Shown one piece after another: positions 5,952-17,150 of a stretch of DNA of 32,000 bases. The stretch is from Alkanindiges sp. WGS2144 (GTDB lineage: Bacteria; Pseudomonadota; Gammaproteobacteria; Pseudomonadales; Moraxellaceae). Within the stretch, counting starts at the first letter, position 1. Each line of letters starts with the position of its first letter. A program made the position numbers and the translations under genes. The DNA lies in assembly GCF_043950625.1 (NCBI RefSeq), contig NZ_CP171007.1. One strand, written 5' to 3'. The notes below the pieces were generated by a model, which was not told the DNA's origin, searched no databases, and saw only the letters and a program-made list of their open reading frames with translations.

Positions 5952-6144
5952 AGCTATTTTTTCTGTATTCCCATAAAAGTACGATTCTAGCCTGAAATGA
6001 AGCCTTTCAACAATCGGGCAGTGCATTTAGGCAACTGGTTTGTATTGCCTTCATTTAACAATTTTTTGGTTCTTTTGGCATGAATGGCTTTGGTATTTGG
6101 CCTTAAATTGCTTAATATCGGCAAAAATTTATATTAAGCCCTCT

Positions 6145-7476
6145 ATGACTGCTTCTTCTGCCCGTTTTAGCGCCCTATTACCGATTTTGCTTTTTCTGGC
6201 ACTATTTTTGGGCAGTGGAATTTATTACACCCTGCAAGGCACAGAATTTGCCTTTTATCAGCTCAAGGCGCCTGTTGCCGCGCTCCCTGCTATTGTGCTG
6301 GCGATCCTACTCAACAAAAAAACCATCAATGAGTCCATTGAGCGCTTTTTGCAGGGTGCTGCCCATCCCAACATTATTTTGATGTGTATGGTGTTTATGC
6401 TGGCCGGCGCGTTTGCCAGTGTGAGCAAGAGCATTGGCAGTGTTGATGCCACCGTGCAGTTTGGCTTGCAGCTGATCCCATCCAGCCTGGTGTTGCCTGC
6501 CCTGTTTGTCATTTCAGCCTTTATTGCCACTGCCATGGGCACGTCTATGGGTACTATTGCCGCCTGTGCGCCAATTGCAGTCGGATTTGCCAGTGCAACC
6601 GGCATGCCTACCCCACTGGCGCTTGGTGCTATTTTGAGTGGTGCCATGTTTGGCGACAACTTATCCATGATTTCTGACACTACCATTGCTGCTACCCGTA
6701 GTCAGGGCGTGAGCCTGCGCGACAAATTCCGCATCAATATCTGGATTGCCCTGCCCGCAGCAATTATTTCCTGCCTGATCTTTATGCAGTTTAGTCAGGG
6801 TACACACCAGCCGGAAGTACAACCGCTATCCAGTTGGCTAATAGCGCCCTATCTGGCGGTATTTGCGCTGGCCTTCACCGGACTGCATGTGCTGGCCATT
6901 TTGATCATTGGTATTGTGCTGGCTGGGGTCATGGGGCTATGGCTTACCCCTGCCTATCATCTTACCAGCCTCAATACTGCCATTTATGCAGGCTTTGTTG
7001 AGCTGTTTGAGATCATGCTGCTATCGTTGTTTATTGGCGGCCTTTCCCAGCTTATGCACGATCAGGGGGGTATGCGCTGGCTGGTGAATGCTATTTTGTC
7101 CCTGACCCGCAAGCTAAAAATGAGCGGTAAACGCGCTGGGGAGTTTGGTATTGCCTTGCTCACAGTGACTGTCAACCTGTTTGTGGCCAACAATACAGTG
7201 GCTATTATTATTGCGGCCGATGTTGCCAAAGACCTTGCCATTGAGCAAATGGTCGATTTAAGGCGTTCTGCCAGCTATCTGGATATTTTTTCCTGCGTGG
7301 TACAGGGATTAATTCCTTATGGCGCACAAATCCTGCTGGCCAGTGCCATTGGCAAGGTATCTCCCCTTGCATTAACAGGCACCACGTATTACTGCTGGGT
7401 TTTGGGGATAGTGGCAATTTTAAGCATTATTTTGCAATATCCACGTCTAAAAACGACTACCCTGCCGCACGCCTAA
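6145..7476 (+). CDS. NhaC-family Na+/H+ antiporter-like membrane transporter
   Basis: The protein is polytopic and hydrophobic, with motifs typical of the NhaC/Na_H_antiporter family (GTSMGTIAACAPIAVGFA, MFGDNLSMISDTTIAATR). I chose the ATG at 6145 (MTASSARFSALLPILLF) over the TTG at 6040. Confidence 0.7.
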   Translation: MTASSARFSALLPILLFLALFLGSGIYYTLQGTEFAFYQLKAPVAALPAIVLAILLNKKTINESIERFLQGAAHPNIILMCMVFMLAGAFASVSKSIGSVDATVQFGLQLIPSSLVLPALFVISAFIATAMGTSMGTIAACAPIAVGFASATGMPTPLALGAILSGAMFGDNLSMISDTTIAATRSQGVSLRDKFRINIWIALPAAIISCLIFMQFSQGTHQPEVQPLSSWLIAPYLAVFALAFTGLHVLAILIIGIVLAGVMGLWLTPAYHLTSLNTAIYAGFVELFEIMLLSLFIGGLSQLMHDQGGMRWLVNAILSLTRKLKMSGKRAGEFGIALLTVTVNLFVANNTVAIIIAADVAKDLAIEQMVDLRRSASYLDIFSCVVQGLIPYGAQILLASAIGKVSPLALTGTTYYCWVLGIVAILSIILQYPRLKTTTLPHA

Positions 7477-10416: not shown

Positions 10417-11322
10417 ATGAAAAATGAGGTCATTCCGATGAATGCGCCATTAAATGCTCAGTATGCAGCCGACATACAGGTACGAAAAAATCTGGACTTT
10501 CAGCTTGAACAGCATATGCCCCGGTTCTGGTTTGGCGGGCACCCATTTAAGACTCGCGTGTTTGACGCCTTAAGTCTGACGTTTCCGGATGGCGAACGTT
10601 ATTTTATTAGTAGCATACGGATGTTTCGTGACCAGATTAGCGACCCTGATTTACAGGCACGAGTAAAAGATTTTATCCTGCAAGAAGCCCAGCACGGTAT
10701 TGCCCACGACAAAATGAATAAGCTCATGATTGAACAGGGTATGCCGGTACATGACATGCTTAAGCTTTTAAATGAACATTTTAATTTTGTATTAAAACAC
10801 CGCAGCCCGGAATACAACATTGCCATGACAGCGGCGGCTGAGCACTTAACGGCATTAATGGCTGAGTGTTTTTACTCCAAAAAAGAAACTCTGGCAGAAG
10901 TTGATCCCTATGTGCGTGCACTATTTGCCTGGCATGCCATTGAAGAAATGGAACATCGCGATGTGGCGTTTGACGTGATGAAAACCACTTCTGATACGTC
11001 CTATTTATTGCGGGCTTACGCACTGGCAATGACCAGTGTGTTGATGTTTGGTCTGACCTTATACCGCACTAACGTGATGCTAAAAGCGGATGGCTTTGGC
11101 CCATTAAAGCGTGCCAAACTGTTTGCTCAGGGTGTGCCCTGGCTCATTGGTAAAAAGGGCGTACTTAGCAGCATGAAAAAGCCATATCTAGACTGGTTCA
11201 AACCAGATTTTCATCCTAGTCAGCATCCGGTTCTGGCTCAATATCCAATCTGGGTAAAAACGCTCAAGGAAACTGGCGACCCCATTAAGGCTGGGCAGGC
11301 GCTATGGGAAGCTGGAAAATAA
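10417..11322 (+). CDS. Predicted metal-dependent hydrolase (PF10118-like)
   Basis: 301 aa. His/Glu-rich motifs (QEAQHGIAHDKMN and WHAIEEMEHRDVAFDV) and the N-terminal PRFWFGGHPFKTRVFDALS resemble this family. An alternative start is the ATG at 10438. Confidence 0.6.
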   Translation: MKNEVIPMNAPLNAQYAADIQVRKNLDFQLEQHMPRFWFGGHPFKTRVFDALSLTFPDGERYFISSIRMFRDQISDPDLQARVKDFILQEAQHGIAHDKMNKLMIEQGMPVHDMLKLLNEHFNFVLKHRSPEYNIAMTAAAEHLTALMAECFYSKKETLAEVDPYVRALFAWHAIEEMEHRDVAFDVMKTTSDTSYLLRAYALAMTSVLMFGLTLYRTNVMLKADGFGPLKRAKLFAQGVPWLIGKKGVLSSMKKPYLDWFKPDFHPSQHPVLAQYPIWVKTLKETGDPIKAGQALWEAGK

Positions 11323-11332
11323 TTAAACAGAG

Positions 11333-11362
11333 CAAGGACGGCACAAGTTGTCCTTGTTTTTC
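11333..11362 (+). terminator. Rho-independent terminator after the hydrolase gene
   Basis: Stem caaggac (11333-11339) pairs with gtccttg (11350-11356), followed by tttttctt. Confidence 0.7.
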
Positions 11363-11409
11363 TTATAAAAATATAACCATAACAAGCATTTTGAGAAATT
11401 AACCTATGA

Positions 11410-11557
11410 TACGTGAGCTGCCTACATGGCAGTTAACTGAATATGAGCTTAGTCAATGCTTTGGATTTATTTCTAAGCTGCCTACATGACAGTTAACTTT
11501 TCCGGCTGATAGGCTTTAATCACCCCATCTTTCTAAGCTGCCTACATGGCAGTTAAC
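11410..11557 (-). CRISPR. Isolated type I-F-like mini-CRISPR array: 3 repeats (28 nt) and 2 spacers (32 nt)
   Basis: The repeats lie at 11410-11437, 11470-11497 and 11530-11557, an exact 60-nt period. Read on the minus strand, the consensus is GTTAACTGCCATGTAGGCAGCTTAGAAA, with a CTGCC/GGCAG hairpin and a CTTAGAAA 3' end as in canonical I-F repeats. The leader-distal repeat (11410-11437) is degenerate in its last 7 nt. Spacers in crRNA sense are GATGGGGTGATTAAAGCCTATCAGCCGGAAAA and TAAATCCAAAGCATTGACTAAGCTCATATTCA. Confidence 0.9.
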
Positions 11558-11652
11558 GAGTTTTATCTATTTACCCAATCAAAAAATAGTTGTTTGTAAT
11601 CTATTAATTTTTATAAGCTTTTAAAGAACATAAAAAATATTGGTTAAAACGA
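11558..11652 (-). promoter_or_regulatory. Candidate AT-rich CRISPR leader
   Basis: This 95-bp A/T-rich tract lies between the DUF1543 stop and the intact first repeat. Its position and composition fit a leader. No promoter was mapped. Confidence 0.45.
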
Positions 11653-12147
11653 TCAGCCAATTACCAAATAAGTATTCTCAAACTCAACACCCAGATGGCT
11701 TCCCTCCACCAGATGCACATACTGTCCGGCCACCTGATCAACCAAAACACAGTCGTCCAGTTCAAATGCCGCATCAATGTGAGGCTTATACCAATCAGGA
11801 TCAAAGTGCTTTTTAGCCTTGGCACGGGCAGTTTTTAAATCCGGTGCAACCACTAAAAAATAACAGTGCGCCTCACCAAACACCTGTCGGATATAACCGC
11901 CCAGATTAATAAAATATAACCTGGGCGATCCTTTGGTGACAGGATGCCCTTTTAGTTGCACCCGATATTGCTCAATGCCGTCAATCGCCATCCATGCATC
12001 AACATGCAACCCCTTGGCACGGCCAAACCACTGCTCACGCAGTTGATCATGGGTAACCTCTAGCGAGTCACCACTGACAAACACCACATCATGTACTTCG
12101 ATATTGGCTGAATCGTGTTTACCACCTAGCATCACAGCATATAACAT
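11653..12147 (-). CDS. DUF1543 domain protein of unknown function
   Basis: MLYAVMLGGKHDSANIEVHDVVFVSGDSLEVTHDQLREQWFG... matches my recollection of the DUF1543 N-terminal signature. I chose the ATG at 12147, which has a GGAAGG Shine-Dalgarno, over the GTG at 12168. The start is 24 nt downstream of the trpB stop. Confidence 0.65.
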   Translation of the reverse strand: MLYAVMLGGKHDSANIEVHDVVFVSGDSLEVTHDQLREQWFGRAKGLHVDAWMAIDGIEQYRVQLKGHPVTKGSPRLYFINLGGYIRQVFGEAHCYFLVVAPDLKTARAKAKKHFDPDWYKPHIDAAFELDDCVLVDQVAGQYVHLVEGSHLGVEFENTYLVIG

Positions 12148-12171
12148 AGACCTTCCGCGCCACTTCACTGA

Positions 12172-13431
12172 TTAATTAATTTCAATGCCGTCCAGTTTGG
12201 CTACGGTCATCAAATCCTTATCACCGCGGCCAGATAAGCACACAATAATACTCTGCTCAGGGCTCATGGTTGGCGCCAACTTGGTCACATACGCCAGGGC
12301 ATGCGAGCTTTCCAGCGCTGGAATAATTCCTTCTATACGGGTCAGGTCACGAAACCCGCGTAAGGCTTCTTCATCATTGATAGGCATGTATTGCACGCGC
12401 TGCATGTCTTTTAGGAAACTATGTTCAGGCCCTACACCGGGGTAATCCAGACCCGCAGAAATACTATGCGTTTCAATAATCTGACCCTGGTCATCACTCA
12501 TCAAATAGGTGCGGTTGCCATGCAGTACGCCTACCCGACCGGCGTTTAATGGTGCTGAATGCTTGCCTGATTCAATCCCATAACCGGAGGCTTCAACACC
12601 ATACATTTTAACCCCTGCATCATTCAGGAAGGGATAAAACAGTCCCATAGCATTACTACCCCCGCCTACACACGCTACCAGCGCATTAGGCAGTTTGCCG
12701 GTCATATCCAGAATTTGCTGGCGGGCCTCGCGGCCAATAATAGATTGAAAGTCACGTACTAGCTGTGGATACGGATGCGGTCCTGCCACTGTACCAATCA
12801 CATAGTAGGTACTATCTACATTGGTTACCCAGTCACGCATGGCTTCATTCATGGCATCTTTTAAGGTCTTGGAGCCGCTGTTAACCGCCACCACCTTGGC
12901 TCCCAACAGGCGCATGCGGTATACATTCATGGCCTGACGCTTTACGTCTTCAGCGCCCATATAAATGACACACTCCAGCCCCAGTCGCGCTGCAATGGTT
13001 GCTGTTGCCACGCCATGCTGCCCGGCACCGGTTTCTGCAATAATGCGGTTTTTACCTGAAAGCTTAGCCAGCAGCGCCTGCCCGATGGTGTTATTGACCT
13101 TGTGGGCGCCGGTATGGTTTAAATCTTCACGCTTTAAATAGATCTGTGCACCGCCCAGTTCCTTAGTCCAGCGCGTGGCATGGTACAGCGGGCTTGGACG
13201 CCCCACATAATGCGCCATGTCATGGTCAAATTCACGCAGGAACTCTGGATCATCCTTCATTTTAAAATAAAGCTTTTCCAGATCCTGCAAGGCAGCCATG
13301 AGTGTTTCAGACACAAAACGGCCACCAAATTTGCCAAAATGACCACTTTGGTCGGGAAAATTAAAATAATTAACGCTGGGCACCTCTGTAGATGAATTGT
13401 CATTTACATCACGGTTTACATCATTAGCCAC
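12172..13431 (-). CDS. trpB: Tryptophan synthase beta chain
   Basis: 419 aa with the PLP-lysine motif HTGAHKVNN, plus GGGSNAMG and [14 protein letters not shown]. The GTG start at 13431 has an AAGGAG Shine-Dalgarno 6 nt upstream and overlaps the end of trpF by 8 nt. Confidence 0.95.
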
Positions 13432-14092: not shown

Positions 14093-14339
14093 TTTACTTC
14101 AGTGCTCTGTACATATTAGATAGATTAAGCGCAGAAAATTGACCATAAGAACTAGCAGTACATTGTAAAGCAAAACGCTGCAAGAAAAACTCCCCACAGC
14201 TCACTAATCCCGTAAAACATCAACCCATGCTTGCCACAATGTTCTCACGACGCTTTGCAAGAAGCAGCCAAACTCAATGCCTTTCCTCCATAACGTAATA
14301 AATTGCAACAAAAACTTAACACTACTATACTGCGTCCGC

Positions 14340-14535
14340 TTTGGGTGCCTAAACAGGCGTTTGTTTTATTTTAAAAACAGATGGGAAGCTGGTGAGAATC
14401 CGGCACTGCCCCCGCAACAGTATGTGTTTGATATTCAATAAGCCAGCTTCTGGCAGCCACTGCTTAGCTTTAAGTGGGAAGGTCATTGAATCAGGTCATG
14501 GGACCCGGCACAAGTCTGGAGACCGACTCAAGGCT
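14340..14535 (+). promoter_or_regulatory. Cobalamin (B12) riboswitch in the btuB leader
   Basis: The core GGGAAgctGGTGagAAtCCggcaCtGccCCCGCaACaGTa (14383-14423) matches the conserved cobalamin-riboswitch core. A B12-box-like AGTCTGGAGACCGAC lies at 14513-14527. The element is immediately upstream of a btuB homolog. Boundaries are approximate. Confidence 0.85.
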
Positions 14536-14584
14536 TTTTATAACCCTAATGCATTCACGTGGGGTGAATGTCCTGGAGCACAGC

Positions 14585-16465
14585 ATGTCCCGTATTTTTA
14601 TGCCGTCTGTACTTACAACGGCCATATTATCTGTTTCAACTACATCGATTTCTACTGCTCATGCCGCTGATACACTTCCAGCCGCCAATCCGGCTCTGCC
14701 GACTATAGTGCTCACTGCTGGTAAAACGCCTGAGTCGATTGAGCAAGTACCTGCCCGGATTTCCGTGATTGATGAAAAAACCATCCAGCAATCACCTATT
14801 GCCGATTTAGGCCAGCTCTTGCAACGTGAAGCTGCCTTAAATGTGGTACAAAGCGGCGGAATTGGACAAATTACTTCTATTTTTACACGCGGTACTAATT
14901 CCAACCATACCCTGCTGCTAAAAGACGGTGTACGACTAAATACCGGCTCACAGCATGTGGCCAGTCTTCCTTTTCTGGATTTGACTGATATTAATCGCAT
15001 TGAAGTATTAAAAGGTCCGGCCTCCGTACAATATGGCTCAGATGCGGTTGGTGGTGTCGTGCAACTCATTACTGAACCACCTAAAAGCCAGCGTTTTTTC
15101 ACCACACTGGAAGCAGGTGATCAGCAAACCTATAAAACCATTTTAGGCGCTGATCTGGTTCAGGAGGATGCTTATTTACAGCTACGCGGACAGCGTCTGG
15201 AAAGTGATGGTTCACCTGTGACCAATGCCCCGGAAGCCAAAAATGCCGGCTTTGACCAAAAAGGCTATAGCGCAAAAGGTGGTATTGATAATGCCCAGTA
15301 TGCGCTAGGTGCTGAAATTTCAGAAAATAAAGGCACTAGCGATTACGATCTGTTCGGCGCACCAACTTCACAGGATTTCTTAAACCGGACATTAAATCTG
15401 ACAGGTCGTTACCAGCTCAATGAACAGTTGGCGGTTGCTGCCCGTTATTCCCGCTTTGAAGATCAGCTTACCCAAAATGACCTGACCTATCTGTATGACT
15501 ACAGCGACTGGCAAAATCCGGTATTGCTAGGTAGTGAGATTGACTATACCAATACAGACCGTCAGGAAGGTGACCTCAACCTGAAATGGGATTTTACTGC
15601 AAACCAGAATGTACTGGCTGGTGCAACCCTGCTGTCTACCAAAATTGATAGCCTGAGCTCAGGCACGCAGTATCGTAAAACACTAGACAGCTTTGGCTAC
15701 TATCTACAACACCAGTATCAGGCAGAAGGCGTTAGCACACAAGCTGGTATCCGTGTAGAAGACAGTGAGCAGTTTGGCACCCATACGGTTGGGCAACTGG
15801 CTGGTCGCTTACAGATTGCACCTCTGACCAGCATTTATGCCAATATAGGCACGGCCTTTAAAGCCCCATCAGGTAATGACTTATATGGCTATGGCGGTAA
15901 CACTGATCTAAAGCCGGAAGAAAGTGCTTCTTATGAACTTGGCCTTGACCATCAATTAACCAGCACGCTGAATGCTTATGCGTCAGTATACCGTACCAAT
16001 ATTAAAAACCTGATTAACCCTGACCCTGTCACCTATCAGATGGTCAATATTGACAAGGCCAGCTTAACAGGTGGCGAAGCTGGTTTAAAATGGCAGCAGG
16101 ATGCCTGGTTTGGCAGCGCAGAATATGCCTATGTCCAGCCTAAAGACAAGGCAACCAGGGAAGACTTGTCACGCCGTCCACGTCAGATTGCTACATTAAC
16201 GGGCGGCTGGGATAACACGGTTTATGGCCTAAGCGCCTCGCTGGTAGCCAAAAGCCGCTCCGACAATAGCGCTTATGATGATATAAAAATCCCTGGTTAT
16301 TTGAGTGCTAATGTGAATGCGTTCTGGCAGGTTGATCAGCACGTCAGACTATTTACCAACCTTAAGAATATTACTGACACCAAATATAAAACTGCCTATG
16401 GTTCAGGCGCTTATTATATTGCCTCTCCTCTTCTGGTTACTGCTGGTATTACCTTAAGCTATTAA
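14585..16465 (+). CDS. btuB: TonB-dependent vitamin B12 outer-membrane transporter
   Basis: From the ATG at 14585 (GGAG Shine-Dalgarno) the protein reads MSRIFMPSVLTTAILSVSTTSISTAHA, a signal peptide. A TonB-box-like PTIVLTA follows. The plug motifs GGIGQITSIFTRGTNSNHTLLLKDGVRLN and LKGPASVQYGSDAVGGVVQLIT closely parallel E. coli BtuB. The track start at 14474 would run through the riboswitch. Confidence 0.9.
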   Translation: MSRIFMPSVLTTAILSVSTTSISTAHAADTLPAANPALPTIVLTAGKTPESIEQVPARISVIDEKTIQQSPIADLGQLLQREAALNVVQSGGIGQITSIFTRGTNSNHTLLLKDGVRLNTGSQHVASLPFLDLTDINRIEVLKGPASVQYGSDAVGGVVQLITEPPKSQRFFTTLEAGDQQTYKTILGADLVQEDAYLQLRGQRLESDGSPVTNAPEAKNAGFDQKGYSAKGGIDNAQYALGAEISENKGTSDYDLFGAPTSQDFLNRTLNLTGRYQLNEQLAVAARYSRFEDQLTQNDLTYLYDYSDWQNPVLLGSEIDYTNTDRQEGDLNLKWDFTANQNVLAGATLLSTKIDSLSSGTQYRKTLDSFGYYLQHQYQAEGVSTQAGIRVEDSEQFGTHTVGQLAGRLQIAPLTSIYANIGTAFKAPSGNDLYGYGGNTDLKPEESASYELGLDHQLTSTLNAYASVYRTNIKNLINPDPVTYQMVNIDKASLTGGEAGLKWQQDAWFGSAEYAYVQPKDKATREDLSRRPRQIATLTGGWDNTVYGLSASLVAKSRSDNSAYDDIKIPGYLSANVNAFWQVDQHVRLFTNLKNITDTKYKTAYGSGAYYIASPLLVTAGITLSY

Positions 16466-16580: not shown

Positions 16581-17150
16581 ATGGGACACCGTTTAAGTAA
16601 AATTTATACCAAAACCGGCGATGATGGCTCAACTGGCCTTGGCGATGGCTCTCGTGTGCCCAAGGATGACCTGCGTGTAGACGCTTACGGCACGGTGGAT
16701 GAGTTAAATAGTTTTGTTGGCGTGCTGCGTGCCCAGCTTAATGTGGCCAGCTCACCCTTGCCCCATCAACTAGATGGCAACCTGAGCCGTATCCAGCATG
16801 AGTTGTTTGATCTGGGCGGTGAATTATGCATTCCCAATTTTATTCTGGTTAAGGCCGCAAGTATTGACAGGCTGGAACAGGAAATTGACCAGATGAATGC
16901 CAGCCTGCCCATGCTCAAGGATTTTATTTTGCCAGCAGGTTCACTGGCTGTATCCTATAGCCATGCCGCACGCAGCATATGTCGCCGTGCCGAACGACAA
17001 GTGTTTAGCCTAAGCCAGCGTGACGATAATATCTCACCACTTGCCCTACAATATTTAAACCGCCTGTCAGACTGGCTGTTTGTGGCAGCACGGCATATCA
17101 GCCGTGAAGATGGAGGCACTGAAGTGCTATGGCAAAAATCAGCTGACTAA
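16581..17150 (+). CDS. PduO-type ATP:cob(I)alamin adenosyltransferase
   Basis: 189 aa. IYTKTGDDGSTGLGDGSRVPKDDLRVDAYGTVDELNSFVG is the hallmark N-terminus of the PduO/MMAB family. Confidence 0.9.
   Translation: MGHRLSKIYTKTGDDGSTGLGDGSRVPKDDLRVDAYGTVDELNSFVGVLRAQLNVASSPLPHQLDGNLSRIQHELFDLGGELCIPNFILVKAASIDRLEQEIDQMNASLPMLKDFILPAGSLAVSYSHAARSICRRAERQVFSLSQRDDNISPLALQYLNRLSDWLFVAARHISREDGGTEVLWQKSAD

Follow-up and report, generated by a model that had tools for sequence, protein, structure and literature searches.

In a 32-kb stretch of Alkanindiges DNA (hereafter the window), three CRISPR-like repeats stand among housekeeping genes, and the first-pass annotation had taken them for a small type I-F array. 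This raises the question of whether the element is a genuine CRISPR array, how it came to lie apart from any cas operon and what it may still be able to do. We consider it probable that it is a genuine type I-F-family array at a long-standing, cas-remote Alkanindiges site, which has shrunk, most likely no longer acquires spacers and could supply usable crRNAs only together with a distant cas locus.

Anatomy and setting of the array

The repeat search in the window revealed three repeats of 28 nt whose starts follow each other at 60 and again 60 nt. Two unrelated spacers of 32 nt lie between them, and the array reads on the minus strand. The repeats, the spacers and the features next to them are listed here.

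10438..11322, plus strand: metal-dependent hydrolase gene (PF10118, by Pfam), convergent with the array; product 100% identical to a protein of Alkanindiges sp. WGS2144 (Moraxellaceae)
11329..11360, plus strand: hydrolase terminator, a strong hairpin followed by a U-tract (fold -18.4 kcal/mol, z = -5.9)
11410..11437, minus strand: repeat 3 (R3), terminal, GTTAACTGCCATGTAGGCAGCTCACGTA, CRISPR-DR4 24.3 bits
11438..11469, minus strand: spacer 2 (S2), 32 nt, TAAATCCAAAGCATTGACTAAGCTCATATTCA
11470..11497, minus strand: repeat 2 (R2), GTTAACTGTCATGTAGGCAGCTTAGAAA, CRISPR-DR4 33.5 bits
11498..11529, minus strand: spacer 1 (S1), 32 nt, GATGGGGTGATTAAAGCCTATCAGCCGGAAAA
11530..11557, minus strand: repeat 1 (R1), leader-proximal, GTTAACTGCCATGTAGGCAGCTTAGAAA, CRISPR-DR4 37.7 bits
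11653..12168, minus strand: DUF1543 gene (PF07566, by Pfam), on the same strand as the array and directly upstream of its leader; likely start codon at 12147

The minus-strand orientation, the repeat length and the hairpin were as the first-pass annotation had them, and each of R1 to R3 is predicted to form the hairpin, with CUGCC/GGCAG as its 5-bp stem and a loop of 5 nt. In a comparison with CRISPR-DR4 (RF01317), the Rfam family of type I-F repeats with a gathering score of 35, R1 scored above this threshold, R2 just below it and R3 also below it. The 28/32 periodicity at 60 nt and the score of R1 bear out the earlier call of a genuine type I-F-type array, and that the three-repeat element is a genuine CRISPR array appears to us virtually certain. 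R2 carries one C>U substitution in the 5' arm of the stem (GTTAACTGTCATG...), which had escaped the first-pass annotation and which turns one pair into a G-U wobble while pairing is kept; the hairpin energy is -5.5 kcal/mol in R2 versus -8.2 kcal/mol in R1. In R3 the hairpin is intact and, as already noticed in the first reading, the 3' end is degenerate: its final six bases differ (...GCAGCTCACGTA), and the 8-nt 3' handle (CUUAGAAA) found in R1 and R2 is lost. Since R3 is the terminal repeat, this loss is harmless to the crRNAs. By sequence, R1 has the stem, loop and handle that Cas6f cleavage and Cascade loading require, and R2 has them with one G-U pair.

That the element is not CRISPR at all, being instead a chance tandem repeat or part of a dispersed palindromic (REP-like) family, is a reading for which only the small copy number speaks. 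The exact 28/32 periodicity and the CRISPR-DR4 match over the gathering score contradict it. Moreover, when both strands of the 32-kb window were searched for positions matching the repeat at at least 20 of 28 bases, only the three arrayed copies were recovered, which rules out a dispersed family within the window. A homologous leader with near-identical repeats stands directly after cas6f in type I-F2 operons, and an array of 16 repeats occupies the same site in a sister species. This reading is thus already refuted by the periodicity, the CRISPR-DR4 match, the sister-species array and the repeats of the I-F2 operons, and its probability is close to nil. Neither S1 nor S2 has a second copy in the window at up to three mismatches, with zero expected by chance, and the exact window repeat was found neither in the genome collection (degenerate-pattern scan, 58 stretches) nor in the JGI metagenomes (0).

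One 60-nt step past R3, at 11350-11377 on the minus strand, a further stretch starts with GTTA (GTTATATTTTTATAAGAAAAACAAGGAC). We do not claim it as a fourth repeat, as its match of 11/28 is non-significant and at least 12/28 is reached by 3.5% of all 28-mers; it may be a fully decayed one.

The array is flanked by the PF10118 hydrolase gene, whose terminator hairpin bounds the array region, and on the other side by DUF1543, trpB and trpF on the minus strand. The Pfam assignments agree with the placement between a hydrolase gene and trpFB-DUF1543 given in the first reading. No cas gene was detected in the window by tblastn with Cas1, Cas2/3, Cas7fv, Cas5fv and Cas6f together with the ORFs of three I-F1 loci, and PADLOC gave no meaningful match among the window ORFs scanned. 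The other ORFs of the window are housekeeping genes only, according to Pfam or to their synteny with the genes called in relatives. No Cas homologue therefore lies within 11.4 kb on one side of the array and 20.4 kb on the other, and the adjacent cas genes of a complete CRISPR-Cas locus are missing. The earlier statement that the 32-kb window is free of cas genes is in line with all four approaches, i.e. tblastn, Pfam, PADLOC and synteny. The transposition genes tnsABC and tniQ were likewise not found in the window.

Two features of the surrounding genes are recorded on their own account. A cobalamin riboswitch (Rfam RF00174, 67 bits) at 14326-14545 on the plus strand lies ahead of a gene for a TonB-dependent receptor (14474-16465), downstream of which a cob(I)alamin adenosyltransferase gene is located at 16581-17150. 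Besides, a gene of the Na+/H+ antiporter family (6040-7476, plus strand) sits between trpA and an O-methyltransferase gene; it is present in the window and in L071, one of the numbered related loci collected for comparison, and missing from L001 and L003.

The leader and its counterparts beside type I-F2 operons

The 95-bp AT-rich tract which had been noticed in front of the first repeat is indeed present, and its alignment to other leaders revealed its nature as a truncated leader. Two features were assigned to it.

11558..11652, minus strand: truncated leader, 95 nt, 80% A+T (window 53%), from the leader alignment and motif positions
11597..11609, minus strand: degenerate distal IHF-like site AATTAATAGATTA, one mismatch to WATCAANNNNTTR, at -52 from R1

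We aligned the 130 nt upstream of the first repeat of ten arrays, namely the window array and nine with intact leaders, six of them cas-adjacent (L022, L050, L061, L067, L068, L074) and three remote (L001, L003, L060). Remote and cas-adjacent leaders align over about 130 nt and share one order of elements. The upstream gene is followed immediately by CCAATATTTTT; then come the CTCTTTAAC block, the IHF site near -97 and the TTGGGT block, and YAANNNNYTGTTRT at -41 precedes a T-rich stretch that reaches the repeat. Of the nine intact leaders, five have the exact IHF consensus (AATCAATAAGTTA = WATCAANNNNTTR, or a fitting variant) at -97, that of the remote array L001 among them, and a sixth has it at -96. 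The IHF-like block YAANNNNYTGTTRT occupies -41 in eight of these nine, and the remote arrays L001, L003 and L060 all have it. Distal blocks with homology to the leaders of I-F2 arrays beside cas genes (CCAATATTTTTT, TTCTTTAAAA and TTGATTGGGTAAA) are retained in the window leader. In this leader TTGATTGGGTAAATAGATAAAACTC abuts R1 directly, so that 35-51 nt with the -41 block and the leader-repeat junction are missing and the distal blocks are shifted by about 45 nt. This repeat-proximal gap occurs in the window only, among the ten aligned leaders, and the combination of distal and proximal IHF sites and flanking motifs at fixed distances which makes up a complete I-F leader is lacking there.

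The I-F integration complex needs two IHF sites and two inverted repeats in a leader of about 150 bp in order to dock the first repeat in Cas1 (bioRxiv 10.1101/2023.05.26.542337). Because I-F integration requires these leader motifs, the window array most likely no longer acquires spacers. The defect would probably block acquisition, by analogy with the biochemistry of Pseudomonas aeruginosa I-F1. The intact hairpins and handle had been taken to argue against advanced decay. This argument was not supported, given a leader without the 35-51 bp at the repeat, including the -41 IHF-like block, and the substitution in the R2 stem. As far as the sequence allows a judgement, the truncated leader, the R2 substitution and the small size argue for decay. 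The repeats alone do not prove it: healthy arrays, too, normally end in a degenerate repeat, and pairing survives the change in R2.

The closest cas-linked repeats were found in loci which we reached via the closest homologues of the Cas6f of Acinetobacter apis. Four of them (L067, L068, L074, L076) carry the operon cas1-cas2/3-cas7fv-cas5fv-cas6f, i.e. type I-F2, and arrays of 52-83 repeats after cas6f. The repeat of L068, L074 and L076, GTTCACTGCCATGTAGGCAGCTTAGAAA, is identical to R1 (GTTAAC...) at 27 of 28 positions and has the same unusual ATGTA loop; the repeat family thus sits beside type I-F cas operons elsewhere. The window array resembles the four I-F2 arrays in its 32-nt spacers, its homologous distal leader and this 27/28 repeat. 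Unlike the window array with its three repeats, truncated leader and missing cas genes, these arrays are large, follow cas6f and have complete leaders (-97, -41). The leader and repeat module of the window is a homologue of the leader and array that follow cas6f in I-F2 operons of Moraxellaceae.

We also considered L067 and L068 as cas islands of Alkanindiges itself and rejected this, as their G+C content of 34-42% is below that of Alkanindiges loci (43-47%) and their Cas6f falls into a cluster with that of Acinetobacter bohemicus. G+C content and cluster members point to Acinetobacter-like rather than Alkanindiges hosts for L067, L068, L074 and L076. The searches with Cas6f and Cas1 proteins returned, among the best 120 matches each, Acinetobacter and Moraxellaceae entries only (at least 58% and at least 83% identity, respectively). 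In L067 (1-19410) and L068 (1-18057) the I-F2 operon and its large array lie on an apparent integrative island, with a DUF4236 gene, a methyltransferase gene and a gene for an HNH protein upstream of cas1 and with genes for an IstB-like ATPase, a DUF1376 protein and a phage-type integrase downstream of the array.

The repeat family also occurs in two other mini-arrays of Moraxellaceae, each observed in an 8-kb locus. One has five repeats (L060:2424-2751) and lies between an aminotransferase-type regulator and HMG-CoA reductase; the other consists of one full and one partial repeat (L065:5440-5523) next to ThiF and a Tdi1-like gene. Both have housekeeping neighbours, and no cas gene was present among their larger ORFs scanned with Pfam.

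The same site in sister species

The intergenic site between the hydrolase and DUF1543 genes was recovered together with an array in two sister species, in the same gene order and orientation. Where the hydrolase is 82% identical (the species of L001, L002 and the GTDB MAG locus L010), the array consists of 16 repeats (GTTTACTGCCGAGTAGGCAGCTTAGAAA) and 15 spacers, and its leader lies on the DUF1543 side as in the window; in L001 the repeats are uniform and the leader is complete. The species with a hydrolase of 79% identity (L003-L008, from several metagenomes) has a leader and one perfect repeat at the site. Neither sister species has cas genes within 10 kb on either side of the array site. 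The comparison of this intergenic locus across relatives, which the first-pass annotation had proposed, hence showed an array in two sister species with differing spacer content and none in more distant relatives, as no repeat was found at the site in those with a hydrolase of 69-75% identity (L070-L072).

Across the three species the site holds 0, 2 and 15 spacers and none of them is shared, i.e. spacers have turned over at this remote locus. Since the window and L001 have no spacer in common, acquisition continued after their lineages split. The stem and handle of the repeat are invariant in the three species, position 4 and the loop vary, and the repeats are 86-93% identical compared with 37-67% for the leaders. 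We infer that the site was already without cas genes when the three species split and that later spacers were supplied by proteins encoded elsewhere. The site would then have been a cas-remote, or isolated, array locus since before the three species diverged, at which adaptation machinery encoded elsewhere added the past spacers. In the lineage of the window the array would subsequently have been reduced to three repeats and two spacers, with the repeat-proximal part of the leader lost.

Three observations on the site stand beside this comparison. The stretch from the hydrolase gene to trpB (window 10438-13431) is variable among relatives; it holds DUF1543 and the array in the three species and, in L070, L071 and L072, unrelated ORFs without Pfam matches or a glycosyltransferase gene. 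At L003:10923-10950, and at the same site in L004-L008, the array is without spacers, with a complete I-F-type leader including the -41 block and a single repeat on six contigs. Finally, L006 and L003 are 99.7% identical over 2878 nt, two of the seven mismatches fall inside the 28-nt repeat, and the resulting L006 variant (GTTCACTGCCATATAGGCAGCTTAGAAA) also occurs in the I-F2 array of L068.

The sister loci also bear on the idea that a cas locus once stood at the very same position, that its cas genes were deleted in situ and that service in trans never took place. Beside cas operons the leader starts a few bases past the cas6f stop codon, and here it starts 10 nt past the stop codon of DUF1543, which makes a clean deletion of an upstream operon conceivable. 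However, the DUF1543-leader junction is common to the three species, and no cas fragment was found in any of them. Moreover, the unshared spacers (0, 2 and 15) imply that acquisition continued after the cas-less arrangement had arisen, and the more distant relatives L070-L072 lack the repeat at the site. We therefore regard a deletion in situ as very unlikely.

A non-canonical role as a regulatory or self-directed guide had been raised in the first reading; on this view the array would encode such a crRNA (CreA/CreR-like or gene-silencing) and would for this reason be kept far from cas. The invariance of the stem and of the 8-nt handle in three species while the leader diverges indicates that the locus does not evolve neutrally in the genus, and this would fit such a guide. 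The spacers, however, gave the idea no support. Their matches within the 32-kb window comprise at most 10 contiguous bases (14 with one mismatch) and those to 666 kb of related loci no more than 14 bases, both at chance level. Nor are the spacers conserved between species, as L001 has 15 different ones and L003 none, and the array lies neither inside nor beside a cas operon, unlike known Cre elements. Neither the spacer-target complementarity nor the cas-operon location typical of the CreA/CreR type was thus found in the window and the 666 kb of related loci, and we consider this role highly improbable. In being very short and having few spacers, the array is similar to the mini-arrays of type I-F3 CRISPR-associated transposons and to CreTA/CreR. 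Those have partly atypical repeats whereas the window repeats are typical, and unlike them the window lacks tnsABC, tniQ and cas genes and its spacers match no host attachment site or cas promoter.

The search for targets in phage and plasmid databases, which had been suggested earlier, yielded no protospacer for either spacer. BLAST searches with the array matched, among INPHARED phages and PLSDB plasmids, only the repeats of other I-F arrays. IMG/VR contained no protospacer of S1 or S2 (0 in searches with full spacers with every sixth base free, with 20-mers and with a 26-mer), and none was found for S1 in the JGI metagenomes either. Similarly, the spacers of the L001 array gave nothing significant against phages. 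This lack of protospacers is what one would expect in a genus sampled so sparsely, and it counts against a firm assignment of the two spacers to an immune origin.

Residual capacity and meaning of the array

No terminator is predicted between DUF1543 and R1, so that read-through transcription is possible, and a search of the residual leader revealed no consensus sigma-70 promoter. The array could be transcribed from what is left of the leader or as a read-through product of trpF-trpB-DUF1543, which lie on its strand. In both units, R1-S1-R2 and R2-S2-R3, the 8-nt handle stands upstream and a hairpin downstream of the spacer, and Cas6f could therefore cut out two normal crRNAs. The production of these two crRNAs of about 60 nt and their use in interference would depend on a compatible cas operon (I-F or I-F2) at another place in the genome, for which we see roughly even odds. 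If the genome has no such operon, the array would be an inert orphan remnant.

Type I-F repeats far from cas genes are known from Pseudomonas aeruginosa ATCC 10145, whose isolated I-F array CRISPR3 is experimentally active, lies 1.3 Mb from cas and has a leader homologous to those of the cas-adjacent arrays (PMC13142298). The window array is similar to CRISPR3 in its distance from cas, in its leader homologous to cas-adjacent ones and in a spacer content that varies between lineages, implying service in trans (PMC13142298). It differs in its host, Alkanindiges, in having only two spacers and in the loss of the repeat-proximal leader block; its closest cas-linked repeats belong to I-F2 (Cas7fv/Cas5fv) operons, unlike the I-F1 system of P. 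aeruginosa.

A fully functional array served in trans, in which a distant I-F or I-F2 operon uses the crRNAs and still adds spacers as for CRISPR3, would have this precedent of an active isolated array with a matching leader. It is also consistent with the sister array L001, which has 15 spacers, uniform repeats, a complete leader and no cas gene within 10 kb, and with the perfect R1 and the two intact crRNA units of the window. However, the window leader has lost the -41 block together with its junction to the repeat, the distal motifs no longer stand in phase, and the array is down to two spacers. Besides, no Cas6f named Alkanindiges was present among the best 120 matches to the Acinetobacter I-F2 Cas6f (at least 58% identity), which is weak evidence. 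Continued acquisition at the window array is accordingly unlikely, and a shrunken array that has most likely ceased to acquire spacers remains the reading we prefer.

Orphan remnants of type I-F arrays in genomes without I-F cas genes are familiar from the CRISPR3/4 situation in Escherichia coli. Similar to these, the Alkanindiges locus has a leader followed by a short array or by just one repeat, at a fixed housekeeping site, and its spacer number varies by lineage. The chromosomal site and the organism are different from E. coli, and the absence of cas applies here to the window only. Our literature search for Alkanindiges and CRISPR returned nothing relevant.

We also weighed a reading in which the hydrolase/DUF1543 site of Alkanindiges is kept as a "docking" array without cas genes, under selection owing to the coming and going of mobile I-F2 cas islands. 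Its basis is that a leader with one to sixteen repeats and an invariant stem and handle is found across species, and the integrase-flanked I-F2 islands of L067 and L068 would be examples of such mobile islands. Although we regard this as quite unlikely, incoming I-F2 islands would, if it were true, use the resident array at once, and the window array would serve as a memory bank in reserve rather than being junk.

On the preferred reading of a shrunken, cas-remote array, the window array is a CRISPR leftover of a commonplace sort rather than a new system. With it, the documented cas-remote type I-F arrays gain a further case, now from Alkanindiges, which points to no new mechanism. What the locus offers is a natural series at one site, made up of an array of 15 spacers, one of two spacers whose leader is truncated, and a single repeat behind its leader. 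This series could show which parts of the leader I-F2 adaptation needs and how arrays decay apart from cas.
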